A stretch of 59,099 nt of DNA, filler included, from Dimargaris cristalligena (GCA_003614675.1; 4 parts of 4 records of this genome joined end to end with filler, not necessarily neighbours in it); one strand, 5' to 3'. Shown: positions 32,347-56,274, numbered from the whole stretch's first letter. Notes: a model not told the origin generated them from the letters alone. A program made the numbers and translations.

Positions 32347-33797
32347 TTAAAGATCAACTAGTTCTAATAATAGGGTGGTCTTTTCTTTAGGATCCCAGTT
32401 GTAATCACGATCAAAGGCAGTGCTCGCATATTCAAGGACCAGGGATTGATCCTCGCCTGGAAAGGTACTCAATGGCACCGCTGGGATAGGTCCAAACACC
32501 TCATTCATGTACTCGACAGAATGGTTAAGATTTAGATCCTGGGCCATTGTAAACGTGAAACCGACATAAAAGGGGTCGAAATCCGCTGAATCATTACTAG
32601 CCATCTCTATAAACTCCGCCGTTTCGGGGAAGAATAGTTCAATAGCCCACAACTGATACAATAGTAAGAGCGAGTTTTGAAGGTGCTCGCGCATTGTTGA
32701 ACGAATCTGGTTATCTTCCGATTCAGGTTCGCCGTACAGTAAGTCCAAGCCGTGGTAGACGAGGTGAAAAACCGTCTCTTCGTTGATCGTAGATGTGGGC
32801 GGAACGGTTGCCGGTCTAATGAGATCCCTGACCGCTAGATTAATCAAAAGTAGGTTGTCCAGCCACCGGCCCGACCACCGATGAAACATAATGGCCAGGG
32901 GCATAATCGACTCACGAGCATCCATGAGAATGCCCATGGAGAGCATATCTCTGGCAACCCAGTACATTTGGCTGACGGTCGAAGGGCCCATAAAAATAGA
33001 TTCATCACTGAAGTCGGGCATTGGGTCTTGGCTAACGAGGTAGTCACCTAAAATACCGGCGATGGTAGCGGCGCTTTCAGCGAAACCCTGCTCGATCATA
33101 TACAACAGCGGATATTTGCGTTTTAACCGTTTTTGGTCGGCCTCGTCCTTGGGTTTGTACCGTCGAGAATGGGGCATACGCTTTCCAAAGTAGAGAACGC
33201 TCAGACCTTTGTTCAAGTACGGGCCTAGGAATAGAGGGACAGCCGCCGCGGGATCTTTGCGAATTTGAGGAATCCAAATGCTAAGATTGTCCTGGGTACA
33301 GGGGGTGCGGTAATAGAACTCGAAAATCGACTCCATCTGTAGAGAGTATGGGTTCAAATTGAAAGAGAGAACAAACAGCACTTGGTATTAGTTTAGAGAT
33401 TAGCTACAGATATAAGATATACCCTTCTCATCCAATATCCGCTAGAGGAGATGACTCCCCCTCCTCGCTCTACATATTTAATTAGGGGCATTTGTAAACG
33501 TCAATCATGTATCTGGAGAGTTTAATATATACATATTGCTTTTTCACTTACGGAATTATCGATAGGATATTTGTTGTACAATACATTATTATTTAACTCG
33601 TGGTTAACCGCTCGAAGGGCTGCCATGTCTCTCCATTCAATCTCTTGGAAGGTCTGTTTGTAAAACTCGTAGGACCCTGTAAGTAAGATTGCTAACTTAT
33701 GGCGTTTAGTTGGAATGGGAGTTGAGCGAGCCGACAGGCTCAAACTGGCCGCCAGTCCAATACACAACAGAACGTTAATGCGGAAACGGAGCACCAT
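32347..33797 (-). CDS. Secreted F-box-like protein (family member 1), 411 aa; exons 33797-33552 and 33336-32347
   Basis: Signal peptide MVLRFRINVLLCIGLAASLSLSARS-TPIP, KR, then LLTGSYEFYKQTFQEIEWRDMAALRAVNHELN; GTAAGT...CTACAG phase-0 intron; clear paralogue of 35191-36678. Confidence 0.8.
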
Positions 33798-35190
33798 CTA
33801 TCTAAAAGTGGGAAACGACAATTGAGTGGGTGGGGGATTAGATAAAAATAATGGCTCTACCCGGCGTAAAAAGTCCTTGAAACGAGATAAGTAATTCGGC
33901 TAAAATGAGAGTGCACCACTTAATAGAAAAGGGTATGGCTTTTCCATGGAGGCCCGGTCTTCAACACCTTTTATATCAAAAACAGGCATTTGGACAAACT
34001 CCCCATTAATGCCTGGGCGGTCGGACTAGGCCTGTAGAGTTTCAAAGGGGCATGCAGTGGGCACTGGCTCGTTGTACAGTCCTAAAATTCCGGGATGCGG
34101 ATTGGTCATTATCAGGTCGTGGTAGGGTCGGTTATATTGCTACCAATACTAATTGGGAAAATATACGCCTGCGGCTGGCATTGCCACATGCTGGAAAAAC
34201 GGCAGACCATGCTCATGTCGGAAATGGCCGGCTTCATAGAGATCCTTGTTAACTATCATGACAGGCTAAGTTGTCGTGTGAATCGCAATGTGTTGGTGGA
34301 CACTATTGAATACGAAAAGGGAAAACACCTATTAGCCGGCGATTTCAACGACCAACGTTTGTGTAATCTATGCCGTTTTGCATTTAGGCCCTGCTGGAGC
34401 TGAAACAGAGTTACATCAACTGCCCCTTCTCCGGCCACAGCCAAATTTATCCAACACGCCTAGTGGCTCTACGATATAGTTCGTGCAACAAGTAAATGGG
34501 CGTTGATTGGAATTTCAATCAAGAGATTCGGCATCGAAATATATACAATGCATGGGGCCCATTAGTGCCCACCCCTCCCATACCCCGTCTAGCCTACCAC
34601 AACTCGCCTTGTTCCAGCTGGCCCTTGCCGTTTAGATTATTTTTTCAACTAATGAAAAAAACTTCACCTCCACCCATTGCTATACCGAGGCATATGATAC
34701 TGGTGCATAGGCTCCAGTTTAGCCATTCATCCCAACTGTTACACACATCCCCCGACCTCCCAGACTAGTGTGGTGCACCCATAACAGTGTTCCAAGTGAT
34801 TTTTACACCGTCGATTGGCCATTTACCACCATGCTGTGGCTGCATTTCGGGTGCTTTTGAATTATCGTCGGGTCTGGTATGGGTGGTTTTGACGAGGAGT
34901 TTAGTTATATTCGGGGGTTTATGTTTTCCCGGTCTGTTCTACCCACCAGTTCAATCACATAAATACCTATTGTTTATTATTGTAGTATAATATGTATGTG
35001 TGAGGTATTAAGATGAAGCAGTATTGACCTTGAAACGTGGAAATGCTAGTATACGAATTGAAAAGCATTATATTGCAATAGTCTAAAAGGGGCCGGGTGT
35101 TTCATAGGCCCATTTCGCCACATAACCAATCATTTTGATACAAAAATAACCATAAAGGCCTGCAATGCCCGAGTTCCCTGTAGGCCCCTA

Positions 35191-54711: not shown

Positions 54712-56274
54712 ATGAAACTGTCCCCCGTAGCGTGGTTGCTGATGGGCATCGCCCCTGTCTGTCACGGTGCCACACCCAATTTAAAAGCGTCATCCCTGAT
54801 TAATTTACCAGTCGAAATTGATGATATGGTACTCGACAGGTGCGATGCGACTAGCGAGTATAGGCTCAGTCAAGTTTGTCAAAAGTGGCAATCTACATAC
54901 TTGGGACGGGAAGGCAATAGAATGCGGAAGGTAAGTAATAAAAGTATATTCTATGTGCATAATTAGGTATGGTACGTCTCGCTATTTCCCATGCACCTCT
55001 TTAGGGTACTGCCATTGCGTCGCTTAGTTTTGCTAGTACCCTAAAATGGTGCCATGAACTGTCAGGCCTACCACTCCGCCAATTAGCTCTTTTGCCATTG
55101 AGTTTTTCCTTTTGGATATTCCTCAACCCACAGGGCCTCTTGCTGTACCTATCAAATCCAGTCAATCACATTTCCAAAATTATCTAATTCACCAACATCT
55201 TTCTAACTGTATCTATTGATTAATCCCCTCCGAATCTACACAAAACACTAATGTCAGGTGATTATCGAATTATTAAGTCAGTCAACCCCCACAGATTGGC
55301 GGGTTCTCATTCCCGAAGACGACTTCAGCACCCTTTATGCTCTACTAGCATCCGACATTCGTGTCAATTTTTATCAGCGCCGCATCTGGGAGGGTCTAGA
55401 GACATCGGGCCATTCCCGGGATGGTGGTTGGCAAGGTAAAGAACGTCTGGCCATTCGATACCCCCACAGCCGAGCTTTGGTCAAGGAGCTGGTCCCAAAA
55501 TTAGCCCGGATTGCCGCCTGGGGGGATTTGCCCAGTGCCCCGCTTCACGAAGTACAGCCGAACAAGCTACTCACAATAGCACCACTGTATTGGGCTATAC
55601 AAGAGGGAAAGACGAGCGCCGTGGATGTCATCATGGACCAGATCATGCTAAGGAGTAACTCACTCGCCCTGGGCACGGCCATTGCCAATCAATTAGACGG
55701 CGACATGGTGTATCTTGCCGGCGTTTTAGCTCTCCCCCAAAACGTTCAGCAGCAAGTACAGCAATCCAGTCGTGGCGGTGACTACAGTAATGTCACTGAC
55801 CCCCAGCTTATCCCGGACGATTGGCAGGATGTTATTTTAACCATCTGGGGCGATTCTTTCCGATTCGACCTGCTGTGCTCGGTGGCGGTGCAGTACATTG
55901 TCCAAGGGGATGCAGCTGGCCTGGCCAAACTCAAGACATGGACGACCCAATTTCTGAAAAATTGGGACGTGGGGTTAAAGCAGTTGGTTTTGGCGGTGGC
56001 GGCCGAGACTGGCCATCTGGCCCTATTGGATGACCCCCGAGTGGCCCCCTTGTTCGAAAACTTCCAGCCGGTACTTCCCCAATATATGTTGCGCTGTATG
56101 GAGGCCAATGGGTGGATGAAGGCAGTCGAGCATTTTGAGAAGCAGTGGAATGTTATCAGAGCGGACAAGTCTGTACCCACTTACAAATGTCAAGACCAGA
56201 TGCCCAACACGGCACCTCTCAGCCTGAATTCCCAGGGGGTCTTGACCTTGACCTATATTCCTATGGTTCTTTAG
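54712..56274 (+). CDS. Secreted F-box protein (family member 4), 411 aa; exons 54712-54930 and 55258-56274
   Basis: Signal peptide MKLSPVAWLLMGIAPVCHG-A; F-box SLINLPVEIDDMVLDRCDATSEYRLSQVCQKWQS; GTAAGT...TCAG phase-0 intron; ankyrin-like APLYWAIQEGKTSAVDVIM and LAVAAETGHLALL; TATA-like TTTATATAAG near 54553. Confidence 0.85.

Follow-up and report, generated by a model that had tools for sequence, protein, structure and literature searches.

Pathogen proteins that mimic the F-box subunit of a host Skp1-Cul1-F-box (SCF) ubiquitin ligase have so far been described in bacteria, in viruses and in a single family of insect proteins. The insect proteins, the SSGP-71 effectors of the Hessian fly (Mayetiola destructor), form a very large family and carry a classical signal peptide. 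They combine an F-box with leucine-rich repeats (LRR) and bind Skp proteins of the host (PMC4617103). The same source lists the RipG/GALA proteins of Ralstonia solanacearum, which consist of an N-terminal F-box and a repeat domain, bind plant SKP1-like proteins and require the F-box for virulence (PMC4617103). Legionella pneumophila AnkB, the Ank proteins of Orientia and the ANK/F-box proteins of poxviruses and giant viruses are described as parasite proteins in which an F-box is joined to helical repeats and which hijack the host SCF. In the poxvirus proteins the F-box is located C-terminally, and VirF of Agrobacterium is likewise counted among the comparable systems. Here we describe four loci, termed g1 to g4, in a stretch of 59,099 nt from Dimargaris cristalligena (the window, i.e., the whole stretch of DNA that was analysed). 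An earlier note on this DNA, in the following called the sequence-only reading, had interpreted these loci as one expanded family of secreted F-box effectors.

Canonical fungal F-box proteins, to our knowledge, have no N-terminal signal peptide, act in the cytosol or nucleus of the producing cell and possess WD40, LRR or TPR bodies. A literature search, which did not extend to supplements that may list secretomes, revealed no secreted fungal F-box effector, none for a parasite of fungi and no statement on F-box proteins of D. cristalligena, in agreement with the earlier note, whose author was aware of no characterised fungal equivalent. Skp1 is highly conserved among fungi, so that little adaptation should be required for an F-box of a mycoparasite to fit into the ligase of its host. 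If the effector interpretation is true, no effector that hijacks an SCF would have been known from a fungus before, nor one directed by a fungus against a fungus.

The interpretation which we put forward is narrower than the earlier one: secreted SCF-adaptor mimics may plausibly be encoded by g4, and perhaps by g3, a reading to which we assign a probability of about 0.3. The loci belong to three families with a common layout, consisting of a short exon 1 with a putative signal peptide of the cleavable type, a phase-0 intron and a second exon encoding an orphan, all-helical body. In g4, which is intact, and in g3, which is disrupted downstream, the remainder of exon 1 encodes a predicted F-box that scores below the Pfam cut-offs. 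We regard the pairing of a putative signal peptide with a subsequent F-box in these two loci as a fair lead. The products of g1 and g2 may be secreted orphan proteins, perhaps degenerate descendants of the same layout.

The F-box assignment is based on comparisons with Pfam and on a pattern search. The three best Pfam matches of g4 exon 1 are F-box families (F-box-like, E 0.0025; F-box, E 0.004; F-box_4, E 0.092; E-values per query) and exon 1 of g3 matches the F-box family with E 0.0013 and 19.0 bits; since the gathering cut-off was not reached, no F-box family membership is claimed by Pfam's standard. In UniRef the product of g4 is labelled 'F-box domain-containing protein'. The pattern comprised approximately 40-48 residues and ran from LPxE[IL] over a hydrophobic ladder to [VI][SC][KR]xW. 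Applied as a loose regular expression to the six frames of the window, it yielded just two matches within 59 kb, namely g3 and g4, and both are located directly after the signal-peptide-like segment. The core of the pattern, LPxEI ... L..VC.KW, is retained in g4, where it lies in register with the yeast Dia2 F-box (7pmk_L; NLP-EI ... L..VC-KW) in an alignment with a non-significant E-value of 0.72; the corresponding stretch of g3 retrieved no F-box chain from the PDB sequences. Beyond the hydrophobic part, exon 1 of g3 and exon 1 of g4 are similar to each other with a z of 5.0, a score which was reached by 2 of 500 shuffles.

For g1 and g2 the same searches gave a different picture. Both lack the LP core and have no match to the regular expression, and their first exons compared with those of g3 and g4 by the Smith-Waterman algorithm give z at or below 0. 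A profile built from exon 1 of g1 and g2 aligned to g3/g4 with a probability of 1%, with the hydrophobic core alone being covered, and found no F-box among the PDB sequences. By eye exon 1 of g1 and g2 can be fitted to the hydrophobic ladder of an F-box, with the intron at the same distance, which is pattern matching and carries no evidential weight. The F-box or F-box-like motif that had been attributed to all four loci receives support in g3 and g4, from the pattern and sub-cut-off Pfam matches, and none in g1 and g2, which match no Pfam family.

A signal peptide had likewise been attributed to all four loci, and by our own crude criteria four of four N-termini are indeed signal-peptide-like. 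They contain one or two basic residues, an uncharged hydrophobic core of 12-17 residues, a Pro or Gly and small residues at positions -3/-1. The best Kyte-Doolittle means over nine residues amount to 2.3-2.9 for the four cores, and those over 19 residues to 1.17-1.29 in g2, g3 and g4 and to 1.76 in g1; in three of the four genes the predicted cores are short for a membrane span. The flank that follows the hydrophobic core is no more basic than the flank preceding it in g2, g3 and g4, which by the positive-inside rule would place the C-terminal part in the lumen. Its conservation in g1 and g2 shows that the hydrophobic part is coding. In g3 and g4 a stop codon is situated just upstream of the first ATG, and the stretch from the hydrophobic segment to the LPxE core contains zero in-frame ATGs, so that any product of these loci with the F-box must also carry the hydrophobic segment. 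Among the 98 ATG-started open reading frames (ORFs) of at least 60 codons in the window, six pass a crude rule written after the genes had been seen, and four of these six are g1 to g4. The two further ORFs are located at 34095-34403 on the plus strand (102 codons, between g1 and g2) and at approximately 50877 on the minus strand (83 codons); both may be non-coding.

The genes g1, g2 and g4 each constitute a single open frame with a phase-0 GTAAGT donor and a YAG acceptor (Table 1). Their introns have G+C contents of 0.32-0.40, a higher AT content than the exons and, read in the exon frame, 4-7 stops. The spliced products comprise 411 aa for g1, 419 aa for g2, or 415 aa if translation starts at its second Met, and 411 aa for g4. 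These values agree with the 411-415 aa given before for the intact members; the lengths of 73-91 codons for exon 1 of the four loci and the dibasic KR in two of them, which are g1 and g3, are likewise confirmed. The first intron in the NCBI gene models of g1, g2 and g4 is identical to the splice drawn here. For g2 the NCBI model P0003 is exactly the spliced product, and P0014 from a second assembly corresponds to it in 418 of 419 residues. The sequences of P0001 and P0015 are wholly contained in spliced g1 and include the g1 junction; P0015, the 5'-partial model from the second assembly, reaches upstream to residue 42. P0004 shares residues 1-131 with g4, across the junction of exon 1 and exon 2, and removes an additional in-frame and stop-free stretch of 168 nt (approximately 55432-55599; 56 residues). 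Because the paralog P0005 retains this stretch with 40 of 56 residues identical, it is probably coding in g4 as well. It carries 'APLYWAIQEG', the motif which had been used in the sequence-only reading.

The locus g3 (44165-42211) had been counted as a gene of the same layout; it is not one open gene. Of the phase-0 GTAAG intron reported for all four loci, g1, g2 and g4 possess the complete form with GTAAGT and one open frame, and g3 possesses a phase-0 GTAAGC donor at 43892 and a candidate acceptor at 43532/43531 with no open gene downstream. An earlier in-frame ATG of g3 is present at 44192. Both annotations model just the 3' part of the locus, as P0010 (200 aa) and P0016 (220 aa, partial), which represent the last ORF. 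The gene has either decayed or contains further introns that could not be placed.

Comparison of the amino acid sequences enabled a classification of the loci. The genes g1 and g2 are paralogs with 44% identity in exon 2 (334 columns, E 3e-81) and 47-48% in exon 1, and a third member of their family is P0002, which matches g1 with 79%. Relatives of g1 exon 2 were found among the proteins of D. cristalligena alone. A search with a g1/g2 profile against 1.84 billion representatives revealed no relatives outside the species: six proteins were obtained at E up to 0.001, two of them from D. cristalligena, and the other four are long proteins (904-5796 aa) with 7-17 short matching stretches that were taken as spurious. 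For g4 a paralog is known, P0005/P0017 (73% identity, 227 of 312 columns), and the ORF of g3 has a paralog with 41% elsewhere in the genome, P0011/P0018. The second public assembly (H4R33) is about 99% identical, as can be seen from the MFAP1 neighbour (454 of 456 residues) and g2 (418 of 419), and for this reason P0002, P0005/P0017 and P0011/P0018 are paralogs and not orthologs. By these comparisons there are three small families confined to D. cristalligena rather than one, with three, two and two known members. No further copies were detected when all gene pieces were compared with the window by tblastn.

The single family of four members proposed by the sequence-only reading could therefore not be maintained, since just g1 and g2 are detectably related. 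Compared with each other, the bodies yield BLASTP E-values of 0.003-7, and hhalign gives probabilities of 0.2% for g1/g2 against g4 and of 0.09% for g4 against the g3 ORF. As a relative of g1, g2 and g3, g4 was also rejected by a shuffle test, with a Smith-Waterman z of about 0 against all of them. The similarity of the g3 ORF to g1/g2 is marginal overall (hhalign E 0.025, probability 2%; z 1.9-3.8 with mutually inconsistent registers). An identical heptapeptide, WLDGLIL, occurs in g2 (approximately 35700-35720) and in the g3 ORF (approximately 42945-42965), and reads WLDNLLL in g1. The motif L-x3-[YFA]PL, which had been named as a feature shared by the exon-2 bodies, was defined after the fact and arises in 35-136 of 5000 shuffles per protein; in g3 the respective stretch aligns better with another motif of g1/g2, 'AAALPLFLGPY'. 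Nor did the postulated expansion of the family find confirmation, as the numbers of known members give no sign of a large one.

In Pfam nothing above noise was obtained for the exon-2 bodies, the paralogs and the g3 pieces, and profiles of the bodies had no significant match among the PDB sequences. AlphaFold2 models were calculated for g2 (P0003, with two relatives; mean pLDDT 39.3, residues 1-89 all below 50) and for exon 2 of g4 (with two relatives; mean pLDDT 41.6). Both are all-helical at a confidence that is too poor for use. In the ESM Atlas the clusters nearest to P0004 are ankyrin families with values of 0.90-0.94, several of them from Nucleocytoviricota (giant virus), which share 118-143 features with P0004 and thus remain below the 170 or more of most true family members. 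The best value of P0003 was 0.84, which is noise level, and its third-ranked cluster bears a description identical to that of the top match of P0004 (282 aa, 58 members, giant-virus). With E-values of up to 10 admitted, no Ank family of Pfam was found for g4 exon 2, P0004, P0005, the bodies of g1 and g2 or the g3 pieces. An ankyrin-like nature of the g4 body is hence a possible lead only.

Beyond the signal-peptide-like N-terminus and the F-box-like character of the next 45 residues, we infer the following course of events. The products would enter the secretory pathway, and those of g4, and of g3 if it is functional, would leave the parasite at the haustorial interface and reach the cytoplasm of the mucoralean host. 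There the F-box would dock onto the conserved Skp1-Cul1 core of the host, and the helical, possibly ankyrin-like body would select host proteins for ubiquitination. In its complete form, i.e., haustoria of D. cristalligena sending the adaptor mimics encoded by g4 with its paralog, and perhaps by g3, into the host cytoplasm, where they join Skp1-Cul1 and mark host proteins for degradation, with g1 and g2 as a branch that kept the secretion exon and lost the F-box, this scheme is rather improbable. D. cristalligena is a parasite with an intimate host interface, as is to be expected of a producer of host-translocated F-box effectors. The organism, which is also the source of the matching protein records, was treated as a parasite in the sequence-only reading, and this is in accordance with the literature. 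It is among the biotrophic mycoparasites studied that were sequenced from single cells (PMC6784888).

Among the described systems SSGP-71 appears to be the closest eukaryotic precedent, with the parasite F-box effector as the element in common with the reading proposed for g4 and g3. The insect proteins differ in having an LRR body and reported Skp binding, whereas the D. cristalligena proteins have an orphan helical body, belong to families of two to three members, would act on a fungal host and are known from sequence alone. For AnkB, the Orientia Ank proteins and the viral ANK/F-box proteins, the ankyrin families nearest to g4 in the ESM Atlas suggest a possible likeness, which is a lead only; g4 has no Pfam Ank match. 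In contrast to the delivery by signal peptide proposed here, these proteins are translocated by type IV secretion or expressed inside the host cell. RipG/GALA and VirF differ by their bacterial origin, their type III or type IV delivery and a leucine-rich-repeat body, and canonical fungal F-box proteins by the WD40, LRR or TPR bodies in place of the orphan body of g4 and g3. A g4 product that is secreted and binds host Skp1 would offer a molecular handle on the control of the host by haustorial mycoparasites, about which almost nothing is known; otherwise, the loci would represent lineage-specific orphan genes with N-termini that fool a secretion heuristic.

A considerable number of observations weigh against adaptor mimics encoded by g4 and g3. 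Every F-box score lies under the respective Pfam gathering cut-off (g4, 18.0 versus 24.3 for F-box-like and 17.5 versus 20.5 for F-box; g3, 19.0 versus 20.5), and on full-length P0004 the F-box matches weaken to E 0.024 and 0.041. Searches of the PDB sequences with the exon-1 profiles and with the F-box stretches of g3 and g4 returned no significant F-box match, and for g1 and g2 Pfam contains no family at E up to 10. The scores under the cut-offs, the layout kept by g1 and g2 without a detectable F-box and the bodies, for which neither Pfam nor the PDB sequences offer a known substrate-binding domain, are also consistent with secreted or endoplasmic reticulum (ER)-resident orphan proteins that act outside cells, e.g., at the haustorial interface or in the cell wall. 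The F-box-like stretch would in this case be a relic or a chance helical motif without a role in Skp1 binding or ubiquitination. We consider this explanation unlikely, however, as g4 retains the core pattern and has F-box families as its three best Pfam matches, and as the similarity of g3 and g4 in exon 1 beyond the hydrophobic part argues for a retained domain. The signal-peptide calls, on the other side, depend on our own crude heuristics, which were tuned after the sequences had been seen; ordinary housekeeping genes surround g1 to g4, and the families with their three, two and two known members are tiny, unlike typical expanded effector families. Small families and housekeeping neighbours would equally suit F-box proteins of the usual intracellular kind, which serve the SCF ligases of the fungus itself and in which the hydrophobic N-terminus is a false signal or an uncleaved anchor on an internal membrane that leaves the F-box in the cytosol. 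It is established that F-box proteins are normally cytosolic or nuclear, the register of g4 with yeast Dia2 points, without significance, in the same direction, and g1, with the longest hydrophobic stretch and a basic flank after it, would fit an N-out anchor. Nevertheless, cores of 12-15 residues with the low 19-residue means found in three of the four genes are too short for a span, and the flank charges of g2, g3 and g4 favour a translocated C-terminal part. As is typical of cleaved signals, the core is succeeded by a helix-breaking P or G and by small residues at -3/-1, and the segment is present in both of the two F-box-pattern ORFs compared with 2 of 94 other ORFs of the window. Intracellular F-box proteins are about as probable as the secreted adaptor mimics.

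The proposal of secreted adaptor mimics is further burdened by the quality of the gene models, which derive from a single-cell amplified assembly. P0001, the NCBI model of g1, begins at Met58 and consequently lacks the signal-peptide-like segment (33797-33626). In g3 two in-frame stops are present after the candidate acceptor (43366-43364 and 43246-43244), and a frame change is needed to reach the 271-codon ORF (43026..42214). Moreover, we know of no route from the haustorium to the host cytosol for D. cristalligena. It is conceivable that the loci are artefacts of annotation and assembly or decaying genes, with ab initio models that depict, in part or throughout, genes expressed in another form or not at all, and with g3 as a pseudogene. 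The disruptions of g3 would be in line with this, as would NCBI models that differ in the start of g1 and insert an extra in-frame intron in g4, and a nested inverted repeat of 1.3 kb nearby. We regard such an origin as highly unlikely, given that g1 and g2 have open frames with 44-48% identity in both exons and introns that are stop-rich and AT-rich. In addition, models from the second assembly reproduce g2 in all but one of its 419 residues and the 5'-partial g1 exactly, and g4 and the g3 ORF each have a paralog that stays open elsewhere in the genome.

Table 1. Features of the loci g1 to g4 in the window (positions counted from its first nucleotide).
Feature	Position	Strand	Characteristics
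g1 exon 1	33552..33797	-	82 codons; stop codon immediately before the ATG; residues 1-23 signal-peptide-like; KR at 31-32; then helical stretch described in the sequence-only reading as F-box-like
g1 intron	33337..33551	-	215 nt; GTAAGT...TACAG; G+C 0.37; 4 stops in exon frame; CTRAY at -55 and -67
g1 exon 2	32347..33336	-	329 codons + stop; orphan helical body
g2 exon 1	36418..36678	-	87 codons with the start at 36678 or 83 with the start at 36666; signal-peptide-like N-terminus
g2 intron	36190..36417	-	228 nt; GTAAGT...CATAG; G+C 0.32; 7 stops in frame
g2 exon 2	35191..36189	-	332 codons + stop; paralog of g1 body
g3 exon 1	43893..44165	-	91 codons; hydrophobic N-terminus, LEKR, putative F-box motif 43929-44015
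g3 downstream part	42211..43892	-	candidate intron 43532-43892; open pieces 43531-43367, 43363-43247, 43243-42959, then 271-codon ORF
g4 exon 1	54712..54930	+	73 codons; signal-peptide-like residues 1-19; putative F-box motif 54805-54888
g4 intron	54931..55257	+	327 nt; GTAAGT...GTCAG; G+C 0.40; 6 stops in frame
g4 exon 2	55258..56274	+	338 codons + stop; body helical, perhaps with ankyrin-like repeats in degenerate form

The window is composed of four contigs (1-14730, 14831-29528, 29629-44320 and 44421-59099) of nearly equal length (14730, 14698, 14692 and 14679 bases), which are joined at 14731-14830, 29529-29628 and 44321-44420 by spacers of the form N44-TTAATTAATTAA-N44. In agreement with the two unlinked contigs named earlier, g1, g2 and g3 are located together on one contig and g4 on another, and because the contigs are joined by spacers, the position of g4 next to the contig of g1-g3 is artificial. 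Other long ORFs of the window appear, by Pfam, to be genes of the housekeeping type, encoding MFAP1, a BRAP2/RING/zf-UBP ligase, eIF1A, a JmjC protein and an enzyme of histidine biosynthesis. The ubiquitin-ligase gene of the BRAP2/RING/zf-UBP type (15451-16857, second contig) is conserved and ordinary and has no relation to g1-g4. Between g2 and g3, within the ORF-poor stretch 36700-42200, four nested pairs of inverted repeats form a palindrome of about 1.3 kb (37970-39300). Its arms have lengths of 54-162 nt and are 70-85% complementary, and the region is AT-rich with a G+C content of 0.37; the palindrome may represent either a foldback element or a chimeric inversion produced by the single-cell amplification. 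The fourth contig contains, close to its beginning, a short (AAT)n microsatellite at 44545-44575, which appears in the ORF lists as poly-Asn or poly-Leu.

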